A stretch of DNA of 30,307 nucleotides from Selenomonadaceae bacterium (GCA_017445435.1 JAFSUE010000158.1:1-30307); one strand, 5' to 3'; shown: positions 1-27,205, counted from the first letter of the stretch. Notes: generated by a model not told the origin, from the letters alone. Program-made: numbers and translations.

Positions 1-1014
1 TACTATGAATTTACAGAGACAAAATCTGACGGTACGACGGAAACTGTAAAATCGCCAACTTACGGTCAAATGAAAAATGCCGTTACAACCGCGATTAAAG
101 GACTTTATAATTATTGGTTGGGTGAAAGCGCAAAGCTTAATTACGATTCACTTGGACTGGCGCTTAATGGACAGACGATTGGAATTTGTTTTTGTACGGG
201 TGGAGAGTACAACGAATTTTCGGCAGATACCGAATCTATTCGCAAAGATACTTTACCCGCCGACAATATTATCATTGGCATTTGTCTTTATAGTTACGGC
301 ATACTCAATCCGCAATTTGTAGGTGATTCTTCGCAGACAGAAAATTTCCGTTACGACACGAAAGGCGCTGTTATCACAAACTACGGCGAAGAAGACGCGA
401 TTTATTTTGATAAAGACGTTGACACTTATTCAATCTCCACTTATCTAAACGATTTTTAAATTGAATCACCGACTGGCGAAACTAAATATGATTTATCTAT
501 GCTTGTACTTCGTGACGTTCGCGGCAAGCTTATGACTTTTGAAACACCCAACGGTACGGCTTATGCTTACATGGCGTCCGATTCAAATGAAGTCAACGGA
601 AATAATTTTGGCGACGGAAATAATTATGAAATTCTTTTCGGCGCAAATTATGCAAATGATACGATTCGAGCAGGTAACGGCGGAAGTTATCTTTGGGGCG
701 GCTTGCAAGGTAATGATGAAATTTTCGGTGGCAACGGCGTTGATACTTTTGTTTACGGTTTCTAAGTCATTTTCTGTTTTTTAGATGGAAATGATTCTGT
801 TCAAAATGCAGAAAATCAAGACATCGTAATCTTAAAAGATATTACGCTTGACCAAATTAAAACCGCGCAGATTAATGACGGCGGCGTTAATTTGCAATTT
901 ACCGACGGCGGCTCACTTACAATCAATGGCACACCTTCAACGTTCATAGTAAGAAATTCAAATACTACTACCTATCGTGCTGATTATCAAAATAAAATTT
1001 GGACGCAAGGTTAA
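1..1014 (+). pseudogene. 5'-truncated RTX/hemolysin-type calcium-binding secreted protein, interrupted by two in-frame TAA codons (457-459, 763-765)
   Basis: Frame +1 is open from base 1 (YYEFTETKSDG...) and continues in the same frame past each TAA (NDF*IESPTGE; VYGF*VIFCFLDGNDSVQNAENQD...YRADYQNKIWTQG*). Gly-rich GGxGxD-type repeats (AGNGGS, GGLQGNDEIFGGNGVDTF). Final TAA at 1012-1014 is followed by a terminator. Confidence 0.7.
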
Positions 1015-1032
1015 TTCGGAATGCGAAATGAA
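1012..1032 (+). repeat. Short degenerate heptamer array TAATTCG-GAATGCG-AAATGAA starting at the stop codon
   Basis: 7-nt phase of the NAAT core, read directly. Confidence 0.5.
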
Positions 1033-1045
1033 AACTAAAAATTAA

Positions 1046-1075
1046 TCGTGGAAAAATTTTTCTACGACTTTTTTT
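1046..1075 (+). terminator. Intrinsic terminator
   Basis: TCGTGGAAA/TTTCTACGA stem (one G-U) followed by a T run. Confidence 0.7.
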
Positions 1076-1112
1076 ATTTAATTGAAAAATTTTCAGGTAA
1101 AATATTTTTTTT

Positions 1113-1122
1113 CTGTTATAAT
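1113..1122 (+). promoter_or_regulatory. Extended -10 promoter element upstream of the LCP gene
   Basis: TG-T-TATAAT about 60 nt upstream of ATG 1181. Confidence 0.5.
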
Positions 1123-1180
1123 GGCGGCTGTTGGGAGGAAATTTTTTTGTCGAGAAAATTTTTTTAGCTGGTGAGGAATT

Positions 1181-2296
1181 ATGAGTGAAAGAGCCTTGCG
1201 TGAAAGAATGGCGCAACGTAGAAAACTTGCCGTAAGCAAAACTTTGGTATCATTTTTAATTTGTCTTTTTATCGGCGTGGCGTCATTGGGCGTCTACGCT
1301 GGTTTCCGTTTCACGGACAAAGTTTCTACGTCTGCAAATTCAAATAATTTTTTCACGCAGAAAAAAAATTCGGCGCAGGAAGAAACAATTTTGCCGACCG
1401 TCAAACAAAATATGACGCTGATTTTAATGGGCGTCGATGAACGCAAAGATGACGTTGGCAGGTCTGATACTTTAATGTTTCTGAATTTTTCCAGCGACGA
1501 AGTGTCCTTGTTGTCAATACCGCGTGACACAAGAGTTTACATTGAAAGGCAGGGTTATCAAAAAATTAATGCGGCGTATGCTTACGGCGGAGAAAAGTTG
1601 ACGCGTCAAACTGTCGAAGATTTTCTTGGCGTCGACGTTGACCGCTACATTAAAATCAATACTCACGCTTTCCCAAAAATTATTGATGAAATGGGCGGCA
1701 TTGATATTTACGTTGAACGCGATATGCAGTACGAAGATCCTTGGGACGACGACGGCGGACTTATCATTGACCTTCGGCAAGGTTATCAACATTTAGACGG
1801 CAATGAAGCGGTTCAATTTGTACGTTACCGCGATTCAGAAGGCGACGCTGGCAGAGTTCGTAGACAACAAGCTTTCATGCGTGCGCTTGCAGAAAAAGTT
1901 ACTGACCCTTCAACTTTGTTGAGGTTGCCAAAAATTTTAAGTGTTGCCTTTGACGCTGTCGAAACAGATTTATCAATGGGCGAAATGTTGGCGCTTGCTG
2001 GTACGTTAAAATCTGCCGAATCTGCAGGAAACATTCAAACGGGCGTTGTGCCAGGCTATATGGAATACATTGACAACATTAGCTATCTTGTTCCCGACGC
2101 TGAAAGACTTGGTGAAGTTGTCATGGAAAATTTGAAGATTGACGCTAGCAAAAGTCACTTTGAAAATCTTGCGTTGGAGTACGACAGAGGATCGCCCGCA
2201 GATTTTTACGATGTGAATCCCAACTTGGAGCGCGATTTACAAATTATGGACGACTTCCACCGCGCAAAGTTCAACTTTGAAGAAAATAAATTGTAA
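1181..2296 (+). CDS. LCP (LytR/CpsA/Psr) family protein, cell-wall glycopolymer phosphotransferase
   Basis: N-terminal TM helix. Motifs LILMGVD, GRSDTLM, LLSIPRDTRV, KINAAYAYGG, D.GRVRRQQ. Confidence 0.93.
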   Translation: MSERALRERMAQRRKLAVSKTLVSFLICLFIGVASLGVYAGFRFTDKVSTSANSNNFFTQKKNSAQEETILPTVKQNMTLILMGVDERKDDVGRSDTLMFLNFSSDEVSLLSIPRDTRVYIERQGYQKINAAYAYGGEKLTRQTVEDFLGVDVDRYIKINTHAFPKIIDEMGGIDIYVERDMQYEDPWDDDGGLIIDLRQGYQHLDGNEAVQFVRYRDSEGDAGRVRRQQAFMRALAEKVTDPSTLLRLPKILSVAFDAVETDLSMGEMLALAGTLKSAESAGNIQTGVVPGYMEYIDNISYLVPDAERLGEVVMENLKIDASKSHFENLALEYDRGSPADFYDVNPNLERDLQIMDDFHRAKFNFEENKL

Positions 2297-2326
2297 GCTT
2301 AAATCAAATCTTAAAGGAAATTATAA

Positions 2327-3646: not shown

Positions 3647-3676
3647 CTACTCACTACTCACTACTCACTACTGACT
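3647..3676. repeat. Heptamer array (CTACTCA)3-CTACTGA abutting the miaB ATG
   Basis: Read directly. Confidence 0.9.
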
Positions 3677-4996
3677 ATGACAAAAAAATTTAAAATTCTA
3701 ACTTACGGCTGCCAAATGAACGTTGCCGAATCTGAACGTATGGCAGGACAACTTTATAAAATCGGCTACAAATTGACGGACGATATTGCGGCGGCTGACT
3801 TAATTTTAATTAACTCCTGTTGCGTACGCGCTACGGCGGAGGATAAAATTTACGGCAAGATTGGCGAGCTTAACCGCTACAAGTTGCAGAATCCCGCGTT
3901 GATTATCGGCGTTATGGGTTGCCTTGCGCAGAAAGACGGCGACGACTTGATTAAACGTTATCCCAACGTTGACTTCGTATTGGGAACTGCGCGGCGCGGT
4001 GAACTTTCTAACGTTGTGGAAAGTTTTGAATCTGCGCGGAAAAGATTTGTCGACACTTCCAACGTTAGCGGACAAATTATTGAGCCTGAAGTTTTTCCCA
4101 TTCGCACTGGTAAAGTGTCTGCCTTCGTGCCGATTATGTACGGTTGCAACAATTTCTGTACCTATTGCATTGTGCCGTATGTTCGCGGACGTGAAAGAAG
4201 CCGTCCTGCCGCCGAAATTTTCGCCGAAATTAAAAACGCCGTCGATAATGGCTACAAGGAAATAACTTTGTTGGGGCAAAACGTCAACTCTTACGGTAAA
4301 GATTTGCAGGAGATGACCTTTGCAAAACTTTTAGCCGCTGTTGATAAAATTGAAGGGCTTAAACGTCTTCGCTTTATGACTAGCCATCCGAAAGATTTAT
4401 CAGACGAATTAATTGACGTTATGGCGAACGGTAAAAATATTTGTGAACATATTCATCTGCCTGTACAGTACGGTTCAAATAAAATTTTGCAAAAGATGAA
4501 TCGTGTTTACACCGTCGAAAAATATTTTGAGCTTGTCAAAAAAATTCGCGCCGCCATTCCGAATATCAGTTTGACGACTGATTTAATTGTCGGCTTTCCT
4601 GGCGAAACGGAAAAAGATTTTCAGCTGACGTTAGATTTTCTGCGCGAAATTAAATTTGATATGGCATTCACTTTCATTTATTCCGAACGTAGCGGGACGC
4701 CTGCCGCAAATTTTGACGGCAAGGTTGACGACGAAACTAAACACCGCCGCCTTAATGAATTAATGGCGGTACAAAATGAAATTAGCCTTGCGAAAAATTT
4801 ACAGCTGGACGATACGACGGTTGAAGTTTTAGTCGAAGGCGCTAGCAAGACTGACAAAAATATTTTCACTGGTCGGACGCGTACAAATAAATCTGTACTC
4901 TTCCCGCATGGTACGGAAAGTGCTGGCGATTTAATCAACGTGAAAGTTAATCAAGTGCAAACTTGGATTCTGAAAGGCATTCGAGATTTTTTATAA
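3677..4996 (+). CDS. miaB: tRNA 2-methylthio-N6-isopentenyl-A37 methylthiotransferase MiaB (alternative start GTG 3626)
   Basis: TYGCQMN, NSCCVRATAE, GCLAQ, radical SAM motif CNNFCTYC, IVGFPGET, C-terminal TRAM domain (GRTRTNK). Confidence 0.95.
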   Translation: MTKKFKILTYGCQMNVAESERMAGQLYKIGYKLTDDIAAADLILINSCCVRATAEDKIYGKIGELNRYKLQNPALIIGVMGCLAQKDGDDLIKRYPNVDFVLGTARRGELSNVVESFESARKRFVDTSNVSGQIIEPEVFPIRTGKVSAFVPIMYGCNNFCTYCIVPYVRGRERSRPAAEIFAEIKNAVDNGYKEITLLGQNVNSYGKDLQEMTFAKLLAAVDKIEGLKRLRFMTSHPKDLSDELIDVMANGKNICEHIHLPVQYGSNKILQKMNRVYTVEKYFELVKKIRAAIPNISLTTDLIVGFPGETEKDFQLTLDFLREIKFDMAFTFIYSERSGTPAANFDGKVDDETKHRRLNELMAVQNEISLAKNLQLDDTTVEVLVEGASKTDKNIFTGRTRTNKSVLFPHGTESAGDLINVKVNQVQTWILKGIRDFL

Positions 4997-6025: not shown

Positions 6026-6682
6026 GTGATAGTTTATACAGTTAAAGGCGGAAAATATTTTCCCGTCGCTGAAAGTTTTGCAAATGACGCTGAAACTCTG
6101 CGCGGGATTTACATTAATTTAACGAATCGCTGTAACAATGACTGCGTATTTTGTCTGCGCGATAAAAAAGTTATGGCGGCTGAAAAAAGTTTGTGGCTTG
6201 ACGAAGAGCCGACAGTTGACGACGTTAAAGCGGAATTGAACGCCGTACCTTTTCATCTTGTCAAAGAAATTGTCTTTTGCGGTTTCGGTGAACCGACGAT
6301 AAGACTTGCCGAACTTACGGAAATTTTGCGCTACGTAAAAAAAATTCAGCCGAACATTTCAACACGGCTGAATACAAACGGACTTGGTGAACTTGAACAC
6401 GGGCGCGATATTTCTGCGGATTTTAAAAATATTTTGGACGTGGCGTCAATCAGCTTGAATGCGGCGACGGCTGAAAGATATTTGAAAATTACGCGCTCAA
6501 AGTTTGGCATTCAAGCTTACGCGGCAATGTTCACTTTTGCCGAGCATATGAAAAAAACTGTCCCGCAAGTTGTAATGACGATTGTTGATAAAGTTACGCC
6601 GCCAGATGAAATTTCCGCCTGTAAAAAAATTTGTGCTGAACACGGCGTAACGCTTAGGATTCGCCCCTACGAAAACAGTTAA
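6026..6682 (+). CDS. Radical SAM protein, TatD-associated type
   Basis: YINLTNRCNNDCVFCLR (CxxxCxxC), EIVFCGFGEPT, RLNTNG, SISLNA; GGAG RBS. Confidence 0.82.
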   Translation: MIVYTVKGGKYFPVAESFANDAETLRGIYINLTNRCNNDCVFCLRDKKVMAAEKSLWLDEEPTVDDVKAELNAVPFHLVKEIVFCGFGEPTIRLAELTEILRYVKKIQPNISTRLNTNGLGELEHGRDISADFKNILDVASISLNAATAERYLKITRSKFGIQAYAAMFTFAEHMKKTVPQVVMTIVDKVTPPDEISACKKICAEHGVTLRIRPYENS

Positions 6683-6724
6683 TTGAATGAAGAATTTTTA
6701 ATTACGCATTACGAATTACGCATT
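6680..6724. repeat. Bipartite heptamer array: TTGAATGAAGAATT then (ATTACGC/ATTACGA)3, spanning both convergent stop codons
   Basis: Read directly. The DAK2 C-terminus MRNS* is encoded by the array. Confidence 0.8.
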
Positions 6725-7947
6725 ATGTTTGCGTTTTCAAGAGCTGAAAAGCCTGCCGAAAATTTTTTCAAGGCGGCTACAGCGTCATTAAAAGATTCAG
6801 TCAAAACTAATTCAACGCGACTTCCCAAAAGTCTTTTAGCTTGCCGAAAAATTAATTTGTAATCGTCACTCGACGAAACTAAAACGTAGCTTGACGCTAA
6901 ATCCGAATGCGCCGCGCCAACAATTTCCGATACCGATGGCGAAGATTCTTCACTGCCAGAAACTAAAATTGACGCGCCAGCATCTTGCAAAATTTGCGCT
7001 TCAGCCGCATTTCTAGCTACTGCAAGCGCCGCAACTTTCATCAACGCATCATGCGCGGGGAGTTGATGACTTTCGCTCATATTCGTAATTTTCACGTCGT
7101 GCAAAGGTCCCCAGCCCAACGCTTGATCAATCGCATTGCCAACGTGATCTGTGTGTAAGTGAATATCCAGCGTACCGCTTGACCGTTCGACGATTGAAAA
7201 ACTGCTGAAATCTTTCATACGCTGTTCAACTTCATAAATATTCGCCTTAGAATTTTTCACGCGAAGACGTACGCAGTACGGTCGAACTCTATCGTTGCGC
7301 GGGTCAGGCATATTTTTATGAATGCCTAAGCCCAACGATAAACTTACGGCGGGCGATACAAAATTTCCGTCAAGACCTTTCAAGCAACCTTTCAAAAAGC
7401 TGAACATAATGTGTGCGCCAGCGTCATTGTGTCCATTTTTTTCGACGGCATCTTCACCCGCTTTAATCGCCGTAGATAAAATTTCTGAAATTGGTTTGCC
7501 GTCACGAACTGCGCGGTAAGCACCTTTAGCAACTGCCTTTGCAACAAATATGAATGGGCTGTCATGATTTTCAGGCATAACACGTTGGGAATACAAAATG
7601 CCATACTGAAAAGCCTTGCCAAATTCAGAGCCAGTAGCTTCGTATTTGCCAATTAAACCAGTAGCAATTCCGTGAAACATTTGCGCCAAAACTACGCCAG
7701 CATTTCCGCGAGCACCAAATACAGCCGCCGTTGCAACACGTCTACTCAAGCCGCCTAAGCTGTCGTCTTTAGCTTCTGTCAATGGCATAACCGCCGCGCC
7801 TATCGTTCGCAAAATGTGTGTACCAGGCAAAGTTCCCGCGCCTGTCTGCGAATTTATATTTTCATATTCTAATAAAAATTCGCTGTACGCGCCTGAAATC
7901 ATTCTCTTGAAATCTCCACCAGTTATAACTTCTCTACTGCCCGTCAT
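6709..7947 (-). CDS. DAK2-domain/fatty-acid-kinase FakA-like protein, degenerate and shortened (412 aa)
   Basis: GARGNAGVVLAQMFHG, PYC, DIHLHTD, VKITNMSESH. Start reassigned to ATG 7947 behind a GGTGGTGA RBS. Confidence 0.8.
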   Translation of the reverse strand: MTGSREVITGGDFKRMISGAYSEFLLEYENINSQTGAGTLPGTHILRTIGAAVMPLTEAKDDSLGGLSRRVATAAVFGARGNAGVVLAQMFHGIATGLIGKYEATGSEFGKAFQYGILYSQRVMPENHDSPFIFVAKAVAKGAYRAVRDGKPISEILSTAIKAGEDAVEKNGHNDAGAHIMFSFLKGCLKGLDGNFVSPAVSLSLGLGIHKNMPDPRNDRVRPYCVRLRVKNSKANIYEVEQRMKDFSSFSIVERSSGTLDIHLHTDHVGNAIDQALGWGPLHDVKITNMSESHQLPAHDALMKVAALAVARNAAEAQILQDAGASILVSGSEESSPSVSEIVGAAHSDLASSYVLVSSSDDYKLIFRQAKRLLGSRVELVLTESFNDAVAALKKFSAGFSALENANIMRNS

Positions 7948-10749: not shown

Positions 10750-13383
10750 CTAATCGTTACGAATAAAATCTTGTATCGTAAGTTTACGTTGCGTCTTAAG
10801 TTCGCGCATTGGCGTACTGTTCGACGGCAGGGACGCTGATAATTCGTCAAATTCTTTCAACGCCGCCTTTAAACTGTTAGACGATGAAATTTCTTTACCG
10901 TCAGGCGTCCGCAAAACAATTTCCAACTTGTCATTTTCGCGGATTGAGTCTGTGAAGTCGACAGGATGACCATTAACGCGAATTTCAAAACTCAAGCGGC
11001 TTTTAGGATTCGGCGGATTAAATTTCACGGCAAGTAAAGCGTCACTAACCGTTACAGATTTTCTTGAAGTTTTCTTGCAAACAATTTCCGCGCCGTCTTC
11101 GACAATCGTATTTAAATTTGACGGACGACCATTGACCTTTAATTCAAGGCTAGACATTGTCGGAATTTGAACTTCCTGCCCTTCGTAAGAAATTTTTATG
11201 TAAGCATTAATGCCAATGTAGCTAATAATGTCAGCAACTTTCGGGCTAGGCGAATCGACGTACTCAATTCTATCATTTGGGCGAACAGGTTCATCAAGTT
11301 GTGTTTCCATATCGTTGAGGGAAATTTTCGGCACGCAACTATATAAAAATTTCTGTTCGTTCAGCGTGTAATTAATCTGCCGCCCTTCAGCAGGATAACC
11401 CGCAATGTTCAAAACTTCTTCAACGGTACGCAGGGAAGTCGTGTCAATTTCGTCGCCGTCGTGCAAAAGGCGATTGGGTAAGCTGTCTTCATCGTTGACT
11501 AAAATTTTTGGCGTGACAGGTTCTTCAGAGCCGTTAATTTTCACGTAAAAATTTGGCGAAACAATTACAACGTCGGCAACTCTAAGCTTAGGCGTTCGAC
11601 CGTCGACGCCGTGTTCAACGTGTATTCGGCAATCATTTTTAATCACCGTTTCCAACGTCGCAGGTTGACCGTCAAGCGTCAATTTAGCAACTGTCCCCAT
11701 ACTGCCAGGAAAAATTTTTTTCTCGCCGTTAATGACGACCATTAAACCAAGTCCCGGCTTACCGTTCCACTTGCGAAGTTGAATGCCAGCGCTTAAAAGT
11801 GCGTCGCTTACCGTCAATTCGCGGAAATGGAATAAGCTGTATTCCTCATCATTGACGAAGACTGTTAAAAAGTGCAAAGTGTTACTCGACGCGATTTTCA
11901 AAATTCCCAGTGGCGTCACGGCGTCAGGCTTGCAAAGTTCTGGTGGAATGCCAGTTACGCCTTCAACGTTTTCAGGTGTACGAACTCTAACGCGTTGTTG
12001 TGGAATTTTCAGCGCGTCTGCAACATATTCATCCAGTTTCGGCGTAAGTGAGCCGCCGCCTACTAAAATTACAGCTTGTGGAAGTTCGCCGCCGTTAAGT
12101 TCCAAAATCGAATTGGAAATTGCATTTGCTAAGTTAGAAATTGTTTCAGAAATTGGCGCTACAATTTCTTCCGCCGTCAAATTATATTCTTCGCCAAGTA
12201 TATCGGCAAAAGTTGCGCCTTCTCCCATAGCCGCTTTACGTTTAACAGCCTCTGCAACGTTGAAATCTAATAAAAATTTTTGTGACAGCGCCTCTGTAAT
12301 TTCATCGCCAGCAATAGGCACCATACCGTAAGCAACAACAGCGCCGCTCTTCGTAATGGCAACGTCGGAAGTTCCCGCGCCAATGTCGACCAAAACTAAA
12401 TTTAAGTGTCGCATTGTCTGCGGAATTAAAACATTTATTGCGGCAATAGGTTCAAGCGTCAACGCCCGCATTTCCATTCCTGTATAATTCAGCGCCGTTT
12501 GCATTGAGTCGATAACTTGACGCGGCAGGAACGTTGCAATAATTTTCGCGCGTGCATGCCGTCCACGTTGCCCAACTAAAATTTTCAGCGGTACGCCGTC
12601 CAATTCGTAGCTGATAATGCTAAATCCTACGCAACAGTAACTTGTTCTGTCGTCAATCACATTTGATTCGATAAGTTTCGACTGCGCAATTTGAACGCCA
12701 GTGAAATTTAAATTGCTCTGTTGCTCTTCGGTAATGACGCCGTGCATTTCCATTTCAACTTCAGCAGTCATCGTGTACAAGGCGCGACCTGCGGCGGCAA
12801 CTGCGGCGCTTGTAAGTTTGCCAACAGTTTTTGAAAGCGTGTCACGAACTTTTTCAATGACTTCAGCAACTTGTGGCACGTCGTGAATTTGTCCGTCAAG
12901 CATGGCGCGGGTAGTATGTTCCTCACGCGTATTTGCGATAACTTCCAAGTTGCCTTTTTTATCGCGAAGTGCAACGATACCTATAACACTGCGCGTACCA
13001 ATATCAAGGGCAAAAACTTTTTCGCGTTCGTCGTCACGGTAAAGCGGCTTAGCAGATTTTTTTTCAGGAGTAGAAATTTTTTCCTCAACGGCAGGAATTT
13101 TTTCAGCCGCAGATTTTTTTTCGGGCTTAGATTTTTTTTCAGACGACAAAGTTTTATCTTTTACTTCAACCGCATCAACTTTTTTCTTACGTGTACGCTT
13201 TTTACTGGCGGCAGATTTTTTTGGTGCATCGTCAACAGTTTTGTCGACAACTTTTTTCTTGCGACCGCGTTTAGGTTTTTCCTCCACGTTTAAATTTTTA
13301 TCAGTGACAGTAACGGTATCTGTTGACTGTTCAATATTTTCTGTACCCTCATTAATTTTATCTCCGACTTCAATTTCGGGCAT
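10750..13383 (-). CDS. FtsA/PilM-like actin-fold ATPase with a Lys-rich N-terminal extension and C-terminal beta-grasp-like repeats
   Basis: VFALDIGTRSV, EPIAA, VDIGAGTSD, ILVGGGS; GGGAGG RBS. Confidence 0.85.
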   Translation of the reverse strand: MPEIEVGDKINEGTENIEQSTDTVTVTDKNLNVEEKPKRGRKKKVVDKTVDDAPKKSAASKKRTRKKKVDAVEVKDKTLSSEKKSKPEKKSAAEKIPAVEEKISTPEKKSAKPLYRDDEREKVFALDIGTRSVIGIVALRDKKGNLEVIANTREEHTTRAMLDGQIHDVPQVAEVIEKVRDTLSKTVGKLTSAAVAAAGRALYTMTAEVEMEMHGVITEEQQSNLNFTGVQIAQSKLIESNVIDDRTSYCCVGFSIISYELDGVPLKILVGQRGRHARAKIIATFLPRQVIDSMQTALNYTGMEMRALTLEPIAAINVLIPQTMRHLNLVLVDIGAGTSDVAITKSGAVVAYGMVPIAGDEITEALSQKFLLDFNVAEAVKRKAAMGEGATFADILGEEYNLTAEEIVAPISETISNLANAISNSILELNGGELPQAVILVGGGSLTPKLDEYVADALKIPQQRVRVRTPENVEGVTGIPPELCKPDAVTPLGILKIASSNTLHFLTVFVNDEEYSLFHFRELTVSDALLSAGIQLRKWNGKPGLGLMVVINGEKKIFPGSMGTVAKLTLDGQPATLETVIKNDCRIHVEHGVDGRTPKLRVADVVIVSPNFYVKINGSEEPVTPKILVNDEDSLPNRLLHDGDEIDTTSLRTVEEVLNIAGYPAEGRQINYTLNEQKFLYSCVPKISLNDMETQLDEPVRPNDRIEYVDSPSPKVADIISYIGINAYIKISYEGQEVQIPTMSSLELKVNGRPSNLNTIVEDGAEIVCKKTSRKSVTVSDALLAVKFNPPNPKSRLSFEIRVNGHPVDFTDSIRENDKLEIVLRTPDGKEISSSNSLKAALKEFDELSASLPSNSTPMRELKTQRKLTIQDFIRND

Positions 13384-13470: not shown

Positions 13471-14502
13471 TTGAGGACTGGCAAAATAAAAAAAATTTCA
13501 GCGTGTTACATCGTGAAGAATGAAGCTGAAAGGTTAGCACTGTCTTTAAAAAATCTGCGCGGCATTGACGAAATTATAATTGTCGACACTGGCTCAACTG
13601 ATAACACGTTGGAAGTTGCAAAAAAATTTGGCGCAAAAATTTTTTGTACGAATTGGGCTGACGATTTTTCCACGCCGAGAAATTTAGCGTTGAGTCAAGC
13701 AACTGGCGATTGGATAATTTTTTTAGATGCGGACGAATATTTTACGGCGGCGACGGCTGATAATCTTCGTAGCGTGATTGAAAGTATTGACGCTACGGCG
13801 GCGAACGGACTTTTAATTTATCTTGTCAACATTGACACGGCGGACGGCGATAAAATTTTAGATACGACCTTCGTATTGCGGATTTACAGGAATTTGAACG
13901 GGCTAGCGTACGTTGGAAAAATTCATGAGGAATTGCGGCTTGACGGAAAAAGTTTGACAAATATAATTCCGTTACCGCCGAAATTTTTAACGCTGAATCA
14001 TACAGGCTATTCCGCGACGTTAAATAAGATGAAGGCGGCGCGAAATTTAAAGTTGCTGTTGGAAGAATTGGCGCAGACGAATGAACCGCAAAGAATTTAC
14101 GGCTATATTGCGCAGTGCTATAATGGGCTAGAAGATTTTATCAACGCGGAAAAATTTGCTAAGCTTGACATTGAATCGGGCGTACGGCGTTCAACTTTTT
14201 CTAGCAGTTCGTATAGAATTTTGCTGGATATTTTGTCGAAGGATTCAACGCGGCTTGAGGAGCGAAAAAATTTTGCTATGATGGCGGCTGAAGATTTTCC
14301 CGACTTGCCAGACTTTTTAGCGGAGCTAGCGGAATGTTACGCCGCGCAGAAAAATTTTGAGGCGGCAATAATTTTAATGACGGGTGCACTTGAAAATTTT
14401 GCAAAGTACGACGGCATTGAGCCTTCCATTTTCGACGAAGTACGGGCAAATTTGGCGCGTCAACGTATAAAAATTTGGACGCGTGAATTTATAAAGAATT
14501 AA
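13471..14502 (+). CDS. GT2 glycosyltransferase with TPR-like C-terminus (type often linked to flagellin/protein glycosylation)
   Basis: ISACYIVKNE, IIIVDTGSTD, W.DDFS..RN, WIIFLDADE, GKIHE, HTGY. Confidence 0.88.
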   Translation: MRTGKIKKISACYIVKNEAERLALSLKNLRGIDEIIIVDTGSTDNTLEVAKKFGAKIFCTNWADDFSTPRNLALSQATGDWIIFLDADEYFTAATADNLRSVIESIDATAANGLLIYLVNIDTADGDKILDTTFVLRIYRNLNGLAYVGKIHEELRLDGKSLTNIIPLPPKFLTLNHTGYSATLNKMKAARNLKLLLEELAQTNEPQRIYGYIAQCYNGLEDFINAEKFAKLDIESGVRRSTFSSSSYRILLDILSKDSTRLEERKNFAMMAAEDFPDLPDFLAELAECYAAQKNFEAAIILMTGALENFAKYDGIEPSIFDEVRANLARQRIKIWTREFIKN

Positions 14503-14528
14503 GAATTGAGAATTAAAAATTAAGAATT
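14494..14528 (+). repeat. Heptamer array (AAGAATT)5, degenerate, containing the GT2 stop codon
   Basis: aagaatt aagaatt gagaatt aaaaatt aagaatt. Confidence 0.85.
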
Positions 14529-14544: not shown

Positions 14545-15945
14545 TTGAAAACTAAAACTTACGTTGAAGATATTGAAAGGGCGCTTTATGATATTCGCGA
14601 CGCCGACGAATCAATTTATAAATCTGACGCAGGCTTGACTGAAGAAATTATCCGTGACATTTCTGCGCGGAAAAATGATCCAGCGTGGATGTTGGACTTT
14701 CGCTTAAAGGCGCTTGAAACGTATAAAAAAATTTCCCTGCCAACGTGGGGACCTGACATTTCAAATTTGAATATGGATGAAATTGTAACCTACGTCAAGC
14801 CCAACGCTAAGCAAGTTTCTGATTGGTCTGAAGTTCCTGACGAAATTAAAAATACTTTTGACAGGCTGGGAATTCCAGAGGCTGAAAAAAAATCTTTAGC
14901 TGGCGTCGGTGCGCAGTATGATTCAGAAGTCGTCTACCACAACATACAAAAAAATTTGACAAGTCAAGGCGTCGTCTATACCGATATGGAAACGGCACTT
15001 CGTGAACATGAAGATATTGTCCGTGAATATTTTATGACGCTCATTCCGCCGAAAGATCATAAATTCGCAGCACTGCATGGCGCGGTATGGTCGGGCGGAA
15101 GTTTTGTTTACGTACCGAAAAATGTTAATGTGGAAATTCCATTGCAATCTTACTTTCGACTCAACGCGGCAGGCGCTGGACAATTTGAACACACGCTGAT
15201 AATTGTTGAGGAAGGCGCGAATTTACATTTCATTGAAGGTTGTAGCGCCCCAAAATATAACGTCACAAATTTACATGCAGGTTGCGTTGAACTTTTCGTG
15301 AAGGAAGGAGCGCGGCTTAGATATTCGACGATTGAAAATTGGTCACGAAATATGATGAATTTAAATACAAAACGTGCGCTTGTCGAAAAAAACGGCTTGA
15401 TTGAATGGGTAAGCGGTTCTTTCGGTTCGCACGTTTCAATGTTATATCCTTGTAGCGTTTTGCACGGCGAAGGTGCACGCGCTGAATTTACTGGCGTAAC
15501 TTTCGCTGGCAAAGGTCAAAATCTTGATACAGGCGCGATTGTCATTCACGCGGCGCCAAAAACTTCGTCGAACATTAACACGCGGACAATTTCAAAATCA
15601 GGTGGCGCGGCTACGTACCGTTCAGCCGTCAAAGTTACGAAAAATGCGCCGTTCGCTAAATCGTCTGTCAACTGTGAATCACTTATGCTTGACGACGAAT
15701 CAAGATCGGACACGTTGCCTGTAATGGATATTGAAGGCGCGGAAGCTGATATTGGACACGAAGCTAAGATTGGAAGAATTTCCGACGAAGCAATTTTCTA
15801 TTTAACTGCGCGGGGAATTTCTGAAGACGAAGCACGCGCAATGATTGTACGCGGATTTGTTGAGCCGATAGCTAAAGAATTGCCGCTTGAATACGCCGTT
15901 GAGATGAACAATTTAATTTCAATCGAACTTGAAGGCGCTAATTGA
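14545..15945 (+). CDS. sufB: Fe-S cluster assembly scaffold SufB (TTG start preferred over GTG 14536)
   Basis: LAGVGAQYDSE, WSGGSF, GQFEHTLII, FIEGCSAP, LHAGCVE, IGHEAKIG, MIVRGF. Confidence 0.95.
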   Translation: MKTKTYVEDIERALYDIRDADESIYKSDAGLTEEIIRDISARKNDPAWMLDFRLKALETYKKISLPTWGPDISNLNMDEIVTYVKPNAKQVSDWSEVPDEIKNTFDRLGIPEAEKKSLAGVGAQYDSEVVYHNIQKNLTSQGVVYTDMETALREHEDIVREYFMTLIPPKDHKFAALHGAVWSGGSFVYVPKNVNVEIPLQSYFRLNAAGAGQFEHTLIIVEEGANLHFIEGCSAPKYNVTNLHAGCVELFVKEGARLRYSTIENWSRNMMNLNTKRALVEKNGLIEWVSGSFGSHVSMLYPCSVLHGEGARAEFTGVTFAGKGQNLDTGAIVIHAAPKTSSNINTRTISKSGGAATYRSAVKVTKNAPFAKSSVNCESLMLDDESRSDTLPVMDIEGAEADIGHEAKIGRISDEAIFYLTARGISEDEARAMIVRGFVEPIAKELPLEYAVEMNNLISIELEGAN

Positions 15946-15978
15946 ATTAAGAATTAAAAATTAAGAATGTAGAATTTT
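15944..15978 (+). repeat. Heptamer array (GAATTAA)-type, 5 units, between convergent genes
   Basis: gaattaa gaattaa aaattaa gaatgta gaatttt. Confidence 0.85.
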
Positions 15979-17003: not shown

Positions 17004-17300
17004 ATGGACAAAGATAAACTTACAAAGCTTGTAGCAGAAAAAGTTGACGCGGCTTGCAAGGCAAGTACTCATCCTAAAAAATTTTTCATTACGGAAAATG
17101 GACGCGGCGTAGTTGACGGCGGCGACCTTTACAATGCCGTTTTGAAAGACGTTTTGGACGTTGTGAAAGTGGCGCTTGTCGATATTTTGGACGAAACTTT
17201 AAAAGTTCCCGAAGTGCCGAAGGTTGAAACTAAAGTTGAATCGAAAGTTGAATCTAAGGGTGCGCCCAGTAAATCTTCCGCGAAGGATAAAAAGAAATAG
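17004..17300 (+). CDS. Hypothetical protein with low-complexity C-terminus (KVET/KVES x3)
   Basis: GGAGGTG RBS; 12-nt periodic repeat near 17221-17258. Confidence 0.75.
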   Translation: MDKDKLTKLVAEKVDAACKASTHPKKFFITENGRGVVDGGDLYNAVLKDVLDVVKVALVDILDETLKVPEVPKVETKVESKVESKGAPSKSSAKDKKK

Positions 17301-17351
17301 TTTGTTGTTAGCGGCGTATTGATTAAGTGGATTTTCTATTTTAATTTTTTT

Positions 17352-17550
17352 TTAAACTACTTTCTTTTGGCGCAAAAGAAAGTAGCAAAGAAAACATAGC
17401 GGCATTTGCGCGCTCGCGCTTTACTTTTCAGTAACAAAAGCAATACACCGCGTCCTTGTGTTCCCAAATATTCAACTCCGCAGAGCGCCATAAATGCCGC
17501 AAAGTACCATCATTTTTCAGCTTTGAATTTTTTACGTAGTTATTCAACTC
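17352..17550 (-). ncRNA. Candidate structured RNA/REP-like element, copy 2
   Basis: The minus strand carries GAGTTGAATAAC, CAAGGACGCG, GCGCAAAT and CTACTTTCTTTTG-cgc-CAAAAGAAAGTAG, as in copy 1. It adds GCGGCATTT/AAATGCCGC, GCGCTC/GAGCGC and TTACT-GAAA-AGTAA stems. Confidence 0.6.
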
Positions 17551-17588
17551 TACCTAATTACTAACACCTAGAAAGGAGCGTGAAATTT

Positions 17589-17864
17589 TTGGATAAGAAA
17601 AAAATTGTTCATTCTGCCCGTGAAAAAATTCGTGAACAGGATAATTCCTCAAGTGGTCGTGAAGCAGTTAGCGGCGAAAAATCACTTTTGGGCGACGTGA
17701 TTGGTGCGTTTATAAATATGGTTGGCGATACGTCAAATGATTCTGCTGATAATGAATCTGCGCGGGAAAGTGGACGTAGCGGCAAAACTTCAGGACGTAA
17801 GCCGCAAGGTCAAGGGCGCGTTGCATCTGTTGGAAGTCGTGTTGCCGAACAACTCAAAAAATAA
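17589..17864 (+). CDS. Hypothetical Ser/Gly/Arg-rich small protein (TTG start; alternative GTG 17580)
   Basis: AAGGAG RBS 10 nt upstream; open frame of about 91 aa. Confidence 0.65.
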   Translation: MDKKKIVHSAREKIREQDNSSSGREAVSGEKSLLGDVIGAFINMVGDTSNDSADNESARESGRSGKTSGRKPQGQGRVASVGSRVAEQLKK

Positions 17865-18030
17865 TTAGGAATGCGTAATTCGTAATGCGTAATGATAAAT
17901 CTTACCACCTACTCACTACTGACTACTAACTAAAAAAAGATTGATAATTAGTAAGGCGGTATGTTAAGAATTAAGAATTAAGAATTTTTCCCTACTCACT
18001 ACTAACTACTCACTACTAACTACTTACTAA
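17862..18030. repeat. Composite heptamer region: TAATGCG-type (17862-17893), CTACTNA (17909-17931), TAAGAAT x3 (17965-17986), CTACTNA x5 (17992-18030)
   Basis: Read directly. Confidence 0.9.
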
Positions 18031-19080: not shown

Positions 19081-19148
19081 TAATGCGTAATTAGGAATGC
19101 GTAATTCGTAAATTAATGCGTAATGCGCAATGAGGAATGCGTAATTAA
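19081..19148 (+). repeat. Heptamer array TAATGCG/TAATTAG/GAATGCG/TAATTCG, 9 units
   Basis: Read directly; one 5-nt phase slip at 19109-19113. Confidence 0.88.
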
Positions 19149-19155
19149 AATTTTT

Positions 19156-19197: not shown

Positions 19198-20328
19198 ATG
19201 AGAATTGCAATTTTTGAAAACATTATGACGGAGGGCGGGCATGAAGTCGACTTCGATAGAATTTTAGTTGAAGAACTTGCCGCACTTGGTCACGACGTAA
19301 ATTTTTATGTGCCAGAAAATTTTATCTTCCACTTTGATTATAAAGTTCCAGTAACGAAACTTGCAGGTGACGCCGTAGTTTACAGTACGTCACGCGGGCT
19401 TAGGAAAATTGCCGCCACTATCAAGCGTGAAATAAATCGTCAGCGTTGGTACAGTCAACTTTACGACGCGCAAAAAAATTTCGACGCGCTGATTGTTCCC
19501 ACGTCGACTTACCGATATTTACGCGCTTTGAATCACAATTCGCTGAAAAAAATTTCCGTACCGCTGATTTTTATTCTGCATGGCATAAATCCCAATGAAG
19601 CGTCAAACTTTTTAAATGCGGCTGAAAAACTTTTGACGTACGACAATATTAAACTTTGCGTGTTGACGCTTGATGAAAATCTTTTCGGCGGCAAGTACAA
19701 AAATATTTTCCCGACGTACCCGCCGACTTTTATTCCGCGTGACGTAAAAATTTTTCAGCGGCAAGTTAGCGACGAATTGACGATTGGATTTTTTGGACAG
19801 TACAGGCGCGAAAAAAAATTGCGCGAATTGCTCAACGTCTTCATCAACGCCAACTACAAGCGCAAAGTGAAAATGATTGTTCAAGGGTCGACTATGCACG
19901 AGGAGGACGCGAAAGATTTTGAAGAGATTATCGCGCAGTATAAAAAATTTGACAGCCTAGAATTTCTGCACAAAGGGTTAATTGGGGCTGATTGGCAACG
20001 GGCAATTTTGAACGTCGACGCGCTTTTAATGCCGTATTCAGCGCCGCGCTATCGTTACCATTGGAGCGCCATGCTTTTCACGGCGTTAGGATTTAAAAAG
20101 CCTGTCATTGCGTCGAGTGATATTAATCCTGAAGTTTGGGAAAAATTTAGAATCGGTGAAGTTTTTGAAAGTGGAAATATTAACGCGCTTGACGTAGCTT
20201 TAAAAATTTTTATTGACAACTTCGACGAAAATATTTTGACGTACAAAAAAAATTTAGACGCCGCCGCAGAAATTTTTTCTCCTGCGAATTTTGCACGACG
20301 CCTAATTCAGCTTTCATTACATTCTTAA
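19198..20328 (+). CDS. GT-B fold (GT4-like) glycosyltransferase
   Basis: N-terminal GGHE, TIGFFGQYRREK, ALLMPY, ALGFKKPVIAS. Confidence 0.78.
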   Translation: MRIAIFENIMTEGGHEVDFDRILVEELAALGHDVNFYVPENFIFHFDYKVPVTKLAGDAVVYSTSRGLRKIAATIKREINRQRWYSQLYDAQKNFDALIVPTSTYRYLRALNHNSLKKISVPLIFILHGINPNEASNFLNAAEKLLTYDNIKLCVLTLDENLFGGKYKNIFPTYPPTFIPRDVKIFQRQVSDELTIGFFGQYRREKKLRELLNVFINANYKRKVKMIVQGSTMHEEDAKDFEEIIAQYKKFDSLEFLHKGLIGADWQRAILNVDALLMPYSAPRYRYHWSAMLFTALGFKKPVIASSDINPEVWEKFRIGEVFESGNINALDVALKIFIDNFDENILTYKKNLDAAAEIFSPANFARRLIQLSLHS

Positions 20329-20343
20329 TTCTTAATTCAATTA
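20321..20343 (-). repeat. Heptamer array (ATTCTTA)2-ATTCAAT carrying the stop codons of both convergent genes
   Basis: GT stop TAA 20326-20328 lies inside the array; fliG stop at 20341-20343. Confidence 0.75.
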
Positions 20344-21395: not shown

Positions 21396-21461
21396 ATTAG
21401 CTTTTAGCTTTTAGGATTTTTTACTACTCACTACTAACTACTGACTACTCACTACTCACTA
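21396..21461. repeat. Bipartite heptamer array: (TTTTAGC/G)-type then (CTACTNA)5, in the fliF-fliG spacer
   Basis: Read directly. Confidence 0.88.
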
Positions 21462-24213: not shown

Positions 24214-24232
24214 ACTTTTCACCTATTTTAGC

Positions 24233-24277
24233 TTGAATTAATTCTTAATTCTTCATTCTTAATTCTTAATTCAATTA
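24233..24277 (-). repeat. Heptamer array (GAATTAA-type on the minus strand) directly after the flgB stop
   Basis: ttgaatta attctta attcttc attctta attctta attcaa tta. Confidence 0.88.
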
Positions 24278-24700: not shown

Positions 24701-24756
24701 AAAACCACCTTCCTTAAATAAATTCTACAAAAAATCCCAACTTCCATTTCTACGCT

Positions 24757-24794
24757 AAAAAAAAATTTCCTTCCATTTAAATCGGCGGAAGGAA
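24757..24794 (-). terminator. Intrinsic terminator of the cobJ-rapZ-yvcK unit
   Basis: TTCCTTCC/GGAAGGAA stem followed by a T run on the minus strand. Confidence 0.8.
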
Positions 24795-24814
24795 CAATTT
24801 GGTAAAGTTTATCG

Positions 24815-26110
24815 CTAATTTTTTTTGCCAAGTTCATAAATCATTTTTATAACGGCTTTACAAAGTTTATCGGGATCGTGTCGTCCCGCGTCAGTATCGC
24901 TGATTAAATCGGCTTTAACAATTCCCATACCTAGCGCGTTAATTTTATCTTCGTCGACTTCAACAGGCGTTGCCTTCGTTGATTGTAAAAATTCTTGCGG
25001 AATTGGCGCGGAGTTCACCAAAACGTAATCAATAGCGCCTTTGCCGACGTGATCCAAAATTGCCTTAGCATGCGCCGACGCTGAATAATTATCTGTTTCG
25101 CCGGGTTGCGTCATCACGTTGCAAATGTAAATTTTAATCGCCTTTGAACTTCTCAACGCCTTAGCCACGCCGTCAACTAAAAGATTCGGCATAATGCTAG
25201 TGTACAAACTGCCTGGACCTAAAATTATGGCGTCAGCATTTTCAATCGCTTCAATGGCGGCTGGTACAGCTTCAACTTTGCGCGGAAAAAGTTTTACACG
25301 GCGAATTTTTTTGTGCGCCTCTGGAATTTGCGATTCACCCTCAACAACTGTCCCGTCAGTCATAACCGCATCAAGCCGTACAGATTCTTTACTAGCTGGA
25401 ATGACTCTGCCTTTAACTGCCAAAACTTTCGACGACTCCTTAAGCGCCGTTTCCATATCGCCAGTAACTTCATTCATCGCCGCGATAAATAAATTTCCAA
25501 AACTATGACCCGCAAGTTCCGATTTACCTTCAAAACGGTATTGAAAAAGTTTTTCCATAAGCGGTTCAGTATCGGCAAGCGCTACAAGACAATTTCGCAA
25601 ATCGCCTGGCGGAATTATTCCCAACTCTTCACGTAGCCTGCCTGAACTGCCGCCGTCATCTGCAACTGTCACGACGGCTGAAACGTTGCTTGTTGAAGAT
25701 TTTATCCCGCGCAGAAGGACTGATAAACCGTGACCGCCGCCTATAACTGTGACTGCAGGTCCACGCCCTAGTTTCCTTTCACGGTAAATTAAATCTATCA
25801 GCTTGGTATTTTTATCTGGAATTATCACGGCGATTATTGAGCGAATTATTGAGCGCGTCGAGTAAAGCATAATGTACGCGCCGATTAAAACAATGCAAAT
25901 GCCCGTGACAAGTACGACGCCGTAATTGTAACTGCCGAAAAGTTTATATACCAGCCGAAAAATTTCTTCTTCGATTTTGCCGAGATATTCATAGTTTAGC
26001 ATAAGCGCGACGCCGAAACTTATCATCATTACGCCGAGTGCAAAGACGAATAGCCAGCGTTTAAGTTTTATTCCAGGATAAAACCATTTTAAAAGGTGCA
26101 GAACTTTCAC
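24815..26110 (-). CDS. yvcK: YvcK/CofD-like gluconeogenesis factor (UDP-GlcNAc-binding) with N-terminal TM extension; start may be CTG 26101
   Basis: IGGGHGL, VTVADDGGSSG.LR, PPGDLRNCL, GHSFGNL, GPGSLYTSI.PN, NVMTQPGET, RHDP. Confidence 0.93.
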   Translation of the reverse strand: MKVLHLLKWFYPGIKLKRWLFVFALGVMMISFGVALMLNYEYLGKIEEEIFRLVYKLFGSYNYGVVLVTGICIVLIGAYIMLYSTRSIIRSIIAVIIPDKNTKLIDLIYRERKLGRGPAVTVIGGGHGLSVLLRGIKSSTSNVSAVVTVADDGGSSGRLREELGIIPPGDLRNCLVALADTEPLMEKLFQYRFEGKSELAGHSFGNLFIAAMNEVTGDMETALKESSKVLAVKGRVIPASKESVRLDAVMTDGTVVEGESQIPEAHKKIRRVKLFPRKVEAVPAAIEAIENADAIILGPGSLYTSIMPNLLVDGVAKALRSSKAIKIYICNVMTQPGETDNYSASAHAKAILDHVGKGAIDYVLVNSAPIPQEFLQSTKATPVEVDEDKINALGMGIVKADLISDTDAGRHDPDKLCKAVIKMIYELGKKN

Positions 26111-26122
26111 CTCCCCTTTTTT

Positions 26123-26157
26123 TAATTAGGAATTCTTAATGCGTAATGCGTAATGTA
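26123..26157 (+). repeat. Heptamer array TAATTAG-GAATTCT-(TAATGCG)2-TAATGTA
   Basis: Read directly. Confidence 0.8.
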
Positions 26158-26160
26158 AAA

Positions 26161-27087
26161 CTAAACTTCCCTAACGTCATTTTTCATTAAGTCACGGTGT
26201 TCAAGGTTGACGGCGTAACCTTTTTTCTTCAACAGCTCAAAAATATGTTTCGCAATGAAAACGCTACGGTGCATTCCGCCAGTACAGCCGACAGCTAGCA
26301 CAAGTTGACTTTTGCCCTCACGAACATATTGCGGCGTTAAAAATTCTATCATTGGATCAAGCCGCTTTAAAAATTCCTGCGTGACAGGCTTTTCTGCAAT
26401 GTACGCGGCAACTTCAGGAACTGCTCCGCTTTTATGGCGCATTGACTCAATGTAAAATGGATTCGGCAAAAATCTAACGTCCAACACCAAGTCAGCGTCA
26501 AGCGGCATTCCATACTTAAAGCCGAAAGATAACACAGAAATATTCATTTCGTCGCCTTCATGAATACCGAAAAGCCGCCGAATTTTTTCGCGTAAATCAG
26601 CTTTCGTCAAGTTCGACGTGTCAATAATATAAGTAGCCTTGCCGCGTACAGATTCAAGCCGTGCCCGTTCCTTTGCAACGCCGTCAGAAATTCTAGTAGA
26701 AGGCGCCATTGGATGACTTCTGCGCGTCTCTTTGTAACGGCGAATAATCGTATCGTCTGAAGCGTCCATAAAAATTAATTCGTAGTCGCGGTCATTTTTA
26801 TCCATATCTTCAAGCACTTGTAAAAGCGTGTCGAAAAATTCACGGCTGCGCGTATCGACGACAAAGACAACGTGACTAACGCTGTTTACTGCATGTGCGC
26901 AAAGTTCCACGAACTTAGGAATTAAAATTGGCGGCAGATTGTCTACGCAAAAATATCCTAAGTCTTCAAGGAAACGGCAAGCTTGAGTTTTGCCGCTACC
27001 GCTCATGCCAGTCACGATGATAATTCGCGGCTTGTCTAAAAGTTTATCGTTGCCATCAACGTTTAAAGTTTTCGTGTCTGTTTCCAT
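26161..27087 (-). CDS. rapZ: RNase adapter / P-loop NTPase RapZ (YvcJ)
   Basis: VTGMSGSGKT, GYFCVDNLP, RYKETRRSHP, SFGFKYG, DVRFLPNP, GCTGGMHRSV. Confidence 0.96.
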   Translation of the reverse strand: METDTKTLNVDGNDKLLDKPRIIIVTGMSGSGKTQACRFLEDLGYFCVDNLPPILIPKFVELCAHAVNSVSHVVFVVDTRSREFFDTLLQVLEDMDKNDRDYELIFMDASDDTIIRRYKETRRSHPMAPSTRISDGVAKERARLESVRGKATYIIDTSNLTKADLREKIRRLFGIHEGDEMNISVLSFGFKYGMPLDADLVLDVRFLPNPFYIESMRHKSGAVPEVAAYIAEKPVTQEFLKRLDPMIEFLTPQYVREGKSQLVLAVGCTGGMHRSVFIAKHIFELLKKKGYAVNLEHRDLMKNDVREV

Positions 27088-27100
27088 AACTCACCCCATG

Positions 27101-27205
27101 TTGAATTAAGAATTTAGAATGTAGAATTAAGAATTAAGGATGATACTACTAACTACTGACTACTAACTACTGACTACTAACTACTAACTTCAAATTAAGA
27201 ATTAA
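27101..27205. repeat. Bipartite heptamer array: GAATTAA-type x5 (27103-27137), CTACTAA/CTACTGA x6 (27146-27187), AAATTAAGAATTAA over the cobJ stop
   Basis: Read directly. Confidence 0.92.

Follow-up and report, generated by a model that had tools for sequence, protein, structure and literature searches.

Intergenic heptamer arrays and S23p/IVP gene cassettes in a Selenomonadaceae genome

Introduction

Tandem arrays of 7-nt units in intergenic spacers have been described in several groups of bacteria. In Xanthomonas (unit GGGAATC) and Nostoc (unit GGGGAYT), hundreds of intergenic arrays of period 7, mostly of at least four units, carry the G-rich strand in sense orientation within 50 bp after stop codons and in antisense orientation within 50 bp upstream of open reading frames (ORFs); 70-75 convergent pairs were counted per genome, few arrays lie between divergent genes, and most are transcribed (Rehm et al. 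2015, PMC4692102). Here we analyse arrays of this kind in a 30,307-nt stretch of DNA from a Selenomonadaceae bacterium, referred to as the window, and their relation to genes of the S23p/IVP family (PF05635), the 23S-rRNA intervening-sequence protein, a four-helix bundle. The window is contig C2 of G000, a metagenome-assembled genome (MAG) of 2.08 Mb in 345 contigs with 40.9% GC and 81% completeness; the closest public loci are from rumen Selenomonadaceae MAGs (goat, buffalo, reindeer).

Heptamer repeats with other units are also known. TAACTGA repeats, patchily distributed over the phylogeny, are known from marine Beggiatoaceae, Cyanobacteria and Bacteroidetes, where they form arrays of 2-6 copies that are often directly upstream of start codons (MacGregor 2015, PMC4679880). 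According to the same paper, Mrazek, Guo and Shah (2007) described long simple-sequence repeats (LSSR) with units of 5-11 nt and an excess of heptamers, attributed to polymerase slippage. The S23p ORF of Coxiella is preceded by tandem GACAGAT heptamers whose number is strain-variable, and RNase III cuts the intervening sequence at the first repeat (Warrier et al. 2016, PMC4990558). Bacterial intergenic heptamers have been noted since 2007 and the S23p ORF since the 1990s, neither with an accepted function or origin.

The G000 arrays share with those of Xanthomonas and Nostoc the period of 7, the intergenic location, the orientation rule and the convergent pairs. In contrast to those, their units are AT-rich and free of G-tracts, so that no G-quadruplex is possible. 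The structural model put forward for Xanthomonas does not apply here, and G-quadruplexes cannot account for the repeat class in general. Furthermore, G000 contains three or four coexisting, unrelated-looking families, each main family being matched to its own IVP gene. A supplement to the Xanthomonas study lists a GGGAATC array between XCC0517 and XCC0516 that overlaps the start of XCC0516, a homologue of the G000 IVPs, while its main text mentions neither "S23" nor "intervening" and makes no link to S23p/IVP genes. The 23S rRNA intervening sequences of Coxiella, Leptospira and Salmonella resemble the G000 cassettes in having a small PF05635 ORF within complementary, stem-forming arms, but in G000 the cassettes separate operon genes that encode proteins, as at trpB|argC, and none is within 23S rRNA; their arms, moreover, have multiplied into about 550 gene-less arrays. 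Compared with the TAACTGA repeats, likewise intergenic heptamer arrays, those of G000 show their strongest association with stop codons, fall into several families and have an identified associated gene family.

An earlier note on the window, made by a model from the sequence, had taken the short tandemly repeated repetitive (STRR) sequences of cyanobacteria for comparison. These are not the closest relatives, since the Xanthomonas and Nostoc arrays are of the same kind and follow the same placement rule. Its statement that nothing of the sort was described in this lineage held in our literature searches, which also found no paper linking genome-wide heptamer arrays to the S23p/IVP gene family. 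The repeat class and its placement are thus already known (Rehm et al. 2015 for Xanthomonas, LSSR, TAACTGA); new are the AT-rich, multi-family form in Negativicutes and the one-to-one match with three S23p/IVP paralogues.

Period-7 arrays in the genome of G000

Among the 12 heptamer loci named in the earlier note, 11 were recovered as period-7 arrays by Tandem Repeats Finder (TRF), and the one at 1012 fell below the threshold (Table 1). In a strict scan of the whole genome for periods 2-15, counting arrays of at least three copies, we detected 244 arrays of period 7 against 0-7 for each of the other periods, confirming the observation of the earlier note. A scan with looser thresholds gave 553 period-7 arrays. 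This number is a lower bound, because the strict detector recovered only 9 of the approximately 17 arrays of the window. Arrays are present in 372 of 1611 spacers, or about a quarter of the intergenic gaps, and 525 of the 553 lie outside ORF-called genes even though the genome is 87% coding; the remaining 28 mostly fall in over-extended 5' ends or last codons.

The arrays are real. They were found in contigs from four independent goat and gut metagenome runs, and contig ends with arrays were not enriched (12 against 11 expected), so that an assembly artefact or contig-end effect was rejected. In the metagenome runs short-read contigs stop at the arrays and the word depth spikes there. Stops provided by arrays, changed C-termini and interrupted short-read assemblies all matter for the annotation of rumen MAGs.

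Three S23p/IVP genes bracketed by complementary arrays

A profile search of G000 with PF05635 detected three genes (143, 103 and 102 bits; cut-off 33.8). Each is enclosed by convergent, complementary arrays, and the arrays are of a different main family for each gene (Table 1). The earlier note had put forward four-helix-bundle/bAvd-like genes as one candidate for a gene family flanked by the arrays, and all three genes fit that proposal. The arm duplexes of the cassettes on C242, C270 and C159 have predicted energies of -43, -21 and -37 kcal/mol, compared with -12, -7 and -10 for shuffled arms. In the TAGTNAG stem (C242:2560-3080), each seventh (N) position is a mismatch, giving 6-bp blocks between single unpaired bases.

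Near-copies of each cassette arm were found at 40-114 other places in G000. The gene-less arrays have the same position-specific order of units and the same end caps as the cassette arms, and are homologous to them; in the window, the unit order of the array at 17862..17894 is nearly that of the left arm of the C159 cassette, and the leader of the C270 cassette, TAATTGAATTAAGAATT, is the one present at window sites.

The closest solved relative of the G000 IVPs is Xcc0516 (PDB 2gsc, E 6e-24), deposited with five chains. PMC4990558, citing Lin 2006, presents it as a homopentamer in which five four-helix bundles make up a ring. Identity of the IVP genes with Avd of diversity-generating retroelements was rejected, as no match to reverse transcriptase (RVT_1) was found in the 81%-complete assembly and the neighbours are housekeeping genes.

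On C203 (5040-6090), upstream of a hydrogenase large-subunit gene, is a site that holds an IVP cassette in six sister species. In G000 a different ORF of about 300 aa is found there, between GAATTAA/AAAGCTA-like and CGCATTA arrays, indicating that arrays can enclose other cargo.

Unit families and the slippage model

The 553 arrays comprise 200 of the CTACTNA/TAGTNAG family, 162 of the GAATTAA family, 110 of the TAATGCG family (with TAATTCG and TAATTAG), 28 of the minor TTAGCTT (TAGCTTT) family and 53 others. The earlier note had fitted all units to a single K-A-R-T-N-N-N frame. In agreement with this, runs of at least three consecutive KART-N3 units occur 719 times in the genome, against 33, 11 and 29 times for KART with N2, N4 and N5 spacers. 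The frame of GAATTAA is ambiguous, because its complement TAATTCT fits the KART frame too. The modal length is five KART cores in all three main families; arrays with 3, 4, 5 and 6 cores number 67, 63, 112 and 21 in the T family, 38, 30, 113 and 49 in the C family, and 41, 51, 72 and 20 in the G family. Unit order is also regular: TAATTAG mostly comes first and TAATGAA or TAATGAT last, GAATGTA is frequently third in the G family, and a TAGTTTT-type cap closes the C family.

None of the known heptamers was an array family in G000. Arrays of GGGAATC or GGGGATT were absent, as were TAACTGA arrays of at least two copies; the STRR units CCCCAGT, TTGGTCA and CAACAGT gave 0, 0 and 1 arrays of at least two copies. 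GAATTAA, TAATGCG, TAGTNAG and TAGCTTT all lack G-runs. Identity with the TAACTGA, STRR or GGGAATC units was therefore rejected.

Ordinary LSSR formation, by DNA polymerase slippage with a preference for 7-nt steps (Mrazek 2007) together with selective removal of arrays wherever they are harmful, would make the IVP genes simple co-residents of spacers that collect arrays. The heptamer excess known from many phyla (PMC4679880) agrees with this model. Exclusion from coding sequence and changes in unit number are features that the G000 arrays share with LSSR as that paper presents them, and slippage does happen, as whole-unit differences among G000, its nearest relative and metagenome strains indicate. 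Adjacent units, however, are barely more alike than by chance. The free base N of TAGTNAG is identical between neighbours in 32.5% of cases, compared with 28.5% expected from pooled arrays and 32.9% after shuffling within arrays, while the remaining six positions are conserved between units. A near-random N beside six kept positions speaks for constraint or templating rather than recent slippage, which was rejected as the source of the units; the arrays are more than plain microsatellites. Their length distribution has its maximum at five cores and does not decay, and leaders, end caps and unit order are common to separate loci and cassette arms. Slippage predicts no orientation rule, no paired complementary arms and no associated gene, and slippage alone does not yield complementary arms with different units in each species. 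Moreover, IVP-less congeners of similar GC have no arrays in 84-100 kb each. We regard this explanation of the arrays as unlikely.

Placement of the arrays relative to genes

When the strand reading KART first is set on top and placement is expressed in the sense of the transcript, a clear rule emerges. Of the KART-sense arrays, 47% begin no more than 3 nt from the upstream stop codon and 66% no more than 10 nt from it, compared with 18% and 28% when arrays are placed at random in these spacers; 27% overlap the stop codon. Arrays of the opposite orientation, about 40% of the total, shun stops (4% within 3 nt) and are located directly upstream of ribosome-binding sites, flush with them, the median distance to the following start being 25 nt. 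The earlier claim that the arrays sit at stop codons is therefore valid for one orientation and fails for the other. The individual cases it cited for GT2 and for the DAK2/FakA-like gene stand: the GT2 TAA lies inside the array, and the TAATGCG array begins at the stop codon of the DAK2/FakA-like gene.

With respect to the nearest gene, 324 arrays point away and 109 towards it. Adjacent arrays form 54 convergent, 8 tandem and 1 divergent pairs, in keeping with the convergent arrangement noted before. In co-directional spacers with arrays the GC skew is +0.38 over the first half and turns to -0.29 over the second, compared with +0.13 and +0.05 in array-free ones. In the window the local GC skew follows gene direction, and in a MAG of 345 contigs the orientation bias of the arrays may reflect the replication strand as well as transcription. 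The recurrent leader TAATTGAATKAAGAATT was present at all four sites for which it had been claimed (after the radical SAM gene, sufB, fliG and flgB), where chance would give 0. The genome has 19 copies of it; in 14 of them the gene ends at the first TAA of the leader, and in one, at sufB, at the embedded TGA.

This placement raises the possibility that the arrays are translation stop cassettes acting in all frames, that is, traps for readthrough or frameshifting, as the earlier note had also considered. UAAU is a strong termination context in bacteria, and three UAAU or UAGU heptads would provide strong stops in every frame. The proximity of sense-oriented arrays to stop codons and the use of the first TAA in most leaders are as expected. 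A trap does not account for the reversed arrays just upstream of ribosome-binding sites, and stop-free units (GGCTGTT, AAGGGAC, TGAGAGG) are found in the homologous arms of congeners and of 23S rRNA intervening sequences; besides, one in-frame stop already suffices for each gene. The readthrough trap is not the best reading and appears improbable. That arrays provide stops seems to be a by-product through which they can lie flush with genes, rather than what they exist for.

The arrays might instead be binding sites of a host regulator unrelated to IVP (a cold-shock-domain protein, S1, a HutP/TRAP-like ring or Rho), as proposed for TAACTGA of Beggiatoaceae. Consistent with such a role, the units show a strand bias relative to transcription (GAATTAA 80:22, TAATGCG 61:20, AAAGCTA 21:3), arrays are flush with ribosome-binding sites, and the array at 3647 is at a start codon without a Shine-Dalgarno sequence. 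Binding sites of HutP are of the UAG-N4 type, which a four-base core with three free bases resembles. HutP (PF09021) gave no match in the 81%-complete genome while the profile detected its positive control in Bacillus subtilis, and a HutP-like ring protein reading UAG-N4 was rejected on this basis. Units differ among close species at the same sites, a poor fit to a conserved host regulator, and no regulon pattern is apparent, flagellar, Suf, glycosyltransferase and transport genes being flanked alike. A regulator of this kind is hence rather unlikely to be the explanation, albeit less so than a stop trap.

Turnover between strains and species

The nearest relative of G000 is G011 (93-95% nucleotide identity; about 70% complete, about 400 contigs). 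Array-free spacers of the two are 98-100% identical, whereas array-bearing spacers differ by whole units (2.6 copies in G000 vs 4.6 in G011; 5 + 6.4 vs 3.5 + 1.5) or by whole arrays, as downstream of sufB, where G011 has two additional ones. At GT2|sufB the spacer and the last gene codons are replaced; the G011 spacer is unrelated and about 130 nt long, and the GT2 ORF there is about 4 codons longer. The array at 20321 has two more units in G011 and in one metagenome strain (+14 nt at 20326), that at 26123 is shorter in G011, that at 27145 is reduced to about 1.5 units, and the TAGTNAG array between fliF and fliG has decayed through point changes. Unit numbers at orthologous sites and in metagenome data thus support the active repeat-generating process that had been suggested from the window. 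Abundant GAATTAA arrays are confined to G000, G011 and, as the variant GAATTAG, G015; 21 other congeners have few or none. Several congeners do carry period-7 arrays built of other units.

IVP genes and arrays in relatives

About 38 further IVP loci were found in the genus, and by inspection nearly all are bracketed by complementary arrays. From the host stop codon onwards, a G-rich array leads to the IVP gene, which is followed by the complementary array and the ribosome-binding site of the next gene. The arm units are species-specific and of 7 nt, in a few cases 8 nt. Cassette sites recur across species (trpB|argC, murD|murG, atpG|atpD, x|hydrogenase, y|cheA, z|glmU, secY|adk), and the IVP protein tree tracks the insertion sites; its deepest split yields two clades, in one of which all 12 members have units with a KAAT core. 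Copies of the gene with stop codons or split were found in four genomes (G055, G020, G043, G013), indicating that gene loss is under way. At the y|cheA and x|hydrogenase sites, G000 has gene-less arrays of its own families, not the units of the sister species, which points to rewriting within the genome rather than passive remnants.

In other families of Negativicutes, 11-12 of 13 IVP genes are bracketed by heptamer arrays. Two of these are inside 23S rRNA, in intervening sequences whose stems are heptamer arrays of GTCGAAA type and TGAGAGG type (G062:C28, L178, and G090:C34, L179), and tie the arrays to classical intervening sequences.

In a survey of 14 related genomes, with about 100 kb sampled from each, array density per 100 kb was 26.6 in G000, 26 in G016, 23.8 in G011, 16 in G015, 11-13 in G013 and 11-12 in G017; the remaining values were 5, 4 and 2, and zero in G002, G006, G018, G054 and G056. 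Density rises with IVP copy number (Spearman 0.85, with support inflated by kinship among the congeners), and four of the five IVP-negative genomes had no arrays.

The distribution of genes and repeats recalls the REP (repetitive extragenic palindromic)/REPIN elements of Proteobacteria, in which a single-copy gene, RAYT, is flanked by the repeat that fills extragenic space in inverted pairs. Mobilisation of the G000 arrays by a RAYT itself, an IS200-like Y1 transposase, would agree with their extragenic location, hundreds of copies, inverted pairs and GTAG-containing units, and G000 does have one Y1_Tnp fragment. That fragment is truncated and has no arrays near it (Table 1), Y1_Tnp was not found in the array-rich G011, G013, G015 (100% complete) and G017, and single arrays are not palindromic. 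This mechanism was rejected, its probability being very low. As an analogy, REP/REPIN-RAYT may nevertheless be the best guide to how the system works, with the differences that the G000 protein is a four-helix bundle without known catalytic activity instead of a Y1 transposase, and that the repeats are tandem heptads, not single palindromes, and not associated with a RAYT.

Proposed origin of the arrays

Taken together, the arrays probably represent IVP cassettes of the intervening-sequence type, either as their arms or as derivatives without the gene or with a single arm. A full cassette would consist of the host stop, a KART-first G-rich array, the PF05635 gene, the complementary array and the next ribosome-binding site, and hundreds of gene-less, arm-like copies would fill other spacers in the same orientation. 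An array may take the place of a gene's final codons and bring the stop with it; the AT-rich units carry TAA or TAG in all three frames, which would enable them to take over gene ends, and stop supply would explain the arrays flush with stop codons. Pairs of arms of the same family would fold into long stems in the transcript, potential substrates of RNase III by analogy with 23S rRNA intervening sequences.

As judged from the sequence, protein binding by the arrays, another suggestion of the earlier note, is plausible. Only tentatively do we propose that S23p/IVP homopentamers are the sequence-specific readers of the heptads, each paralogue maintaining or spreading its own array family; we consider this possible but doubtful. 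On single-stranded RNA or DNA, each subunit of a pentameric paralogue would read one heptad and the whole pentamer about five, all from the paralogue's own family; by analogy with RAYT and REPIN this interaction might maintain or spread the arrays, with polymerase slippage adding or dropping units afterwards. If true, this would be a protein-repeat system like RAYT-REPIN but built on a non-enzymatic four-helix bundle, and would account for the dominance of 7 nt among bacterial intergenic tandem repeats of many phyla and for the purpose of the ORF in 23S rRNA intervening sequences. With three families, three paralogues and one family per gene, G000 is a clean natural experiment in which two descriptive puzzles are joined.

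Several observations weigh against the cassette origin or against the role of IVP. The correlation of density with copy number overstates the support, because the congeners are related to one another. In G011, rich in arrays, no IVP gene was detected in an assembly about 70% complete and in about 400 contigs; G010 has four arrays and no detected IVP gene, and G006, which has one IVP gene, is free of arrays over 100 kb. The TAGCTTT family and the 53 other arrays lack a cognate IVP gene in the 81%-complete assembly of G000. Co-variation of protein and unit could result from linkage alone, because gene and arms are inherited together. Arm lengths range from about 2.5 to 8 units, five being the mode and not a rule. 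Finally, two thirds of the convergent pairs mix families and do not fold (z about -1), so that a hairpin function cannot explain most arrays. Same-family convergent pairs do fold (z -6 to -9), and hairpin formation as the reason for convergent pairs was retained for these only.

Arrays and other features of the window

The positions of the window arrays, of the three cassettes and of the transposase fragment are listed in Table 1.

Table 1. Heptamer arrays of the window, with the IVP cassettes and the Y1 transposase fragment located elsewhere in G000. Positions without a contig name are those of the window.
Position	Strand	Feature and context	Basis
1012..1034	+	degenerate TAATGCG-type, 2-3 units (TAATTCG GAATGCG AAATGAA), long spacer; weakest of the 12 loci	sequence; unreported by TRF
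3647..3677	+	CTACTCA x4.4, C-rich orientation on sense strand; abuts likely ATG (~3680) of MiaB-like radical SAM gene	TRF, Pfam
6680..6696	+	GAATTAA-family leader TAATTGAATGAAGAATT; first TAA is stop of radical SAM gene 6026..6682	leader scan, ORFs, Pfam
6701..6725	-	TAATGCG x3.6 (minus-strand reading), from stop codon (6709-6711) of convergent DAK2/FakA-like gene	TRF, ORFs, Pfam
14494..14528	+	GAATTAA-family x5; holds GT2 TAA stop (14500-14502); ends 8 nt before sufB GTG	TRF, ORFs
15939..15976	+	leader + GAATTAA x4.7; embedded TGA (15943-15945) is sufB stop	TRF, leader scan
17862..17894	+	TAATGCG-family, TAATTAG GAATGCG TAATTCG TAATGCG TAATGAT; begins with stop of ORF 17580..17864	TRF
17909..17932	+	CTACTNA x3.4; convergent partner of 17862 array, of another family, no pairing with it	TRF
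17964..17986	+	GAATTAA x3.3	TRF
17992..18029	+	CTACTNA x5.4, ~80 nt upstream of NMT1-like binding-protein gene	TRF
19081..19148	+	two abutting TAATGCG-family blocks, ~9.6 units; 6 nt past NMT1-like gene stop; then terminator-like hairpin	TRF
20321..20343	-	leader + GAATTAA x2.6; TAA is fliG stop (20341-20343); plus-strand GT1 stop also inside (20326-20328)	TRF, leader scan
21397..21414	+	TTAGCTT x2.6; AAAGCTA on sense (minus) strand, just upstream of fliG ribosome-binding site	TRF
21423..21461	-	TAGTNAG x5.6 on sense (minus) strand, fliF-fliG spacer	TRF
24238..24277	-	leader + GAATTAA x5; starts with flgB stop (24275-24277), ends ~15 nt before flgC start	TRF, leader scan
26123..26155	+	TAATGCG-family; CGCATTA on sense (minus) strand, flush with ribosome-binding site of CofD-like gene	TRF
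27103..27138	+	GAATTAA x5.1; TTAATTC on sense (minus) strand, flush with start region of gene 26161..27087	TRF
27145..27189	-	TAGTNAG x6.4 on sense (minus) strand, 12 nt past stop of gene 27202..27948	TRF
C242:2654-2965		IVP cassette, TAGTNAG ... CTACTNA arms	PF05635
C270:2194-2505		IVP cassette, leader + GAATTAA ... TTAATTC arms	PF05635
C159:2699-3010		IVP cassette, TAATTAG GAATGCG TAATGCG TAATGCG TAATGAT ... complement arms	PF05635
C218:5-175		truncated IS200-like Y1 transposase gene at contig end; no arrays in 500 nt upstream	

The CTACTCA array leads directly into the probable start codon (ATG) of the MiaB-like gene (3647-3682), with no Shine-Dalgarno sequence, comparable with the TAACTGA leaders of Beggiatoaceae that also lack one. 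The 3' end of the GT2 gene, immediately before the array, consists of 2.2 copies of a 24-nt direct repeat, AAATTTGGACGCGTCAACGTATAA (14448-14500), and a related word, AAATTTGGACGC, precedes the degenerate array at 1012 (996-1008); these words may be the remnant of a duplicated gene end.

Two further features of the window were noted. Within the large FtsA-like coding sequence, 13052-13142 is a repeat of 18-nt period (4.9 copies, 65% matches) unrelated to the heptamers. At 17300-17569, overlapping what the earlier note had called copy 2 of a structured element, a structured element of 270 nt is missing from three independent metagenome strains (runs X1, X3 and X4), in which the empty site joins 17299 to 17570 with 9 other letters. 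It matches dozens of G011 contigs at 73-97% identity and looks like a mobile insertion resembling a miniature inverted-repeat transposable element (MITE).

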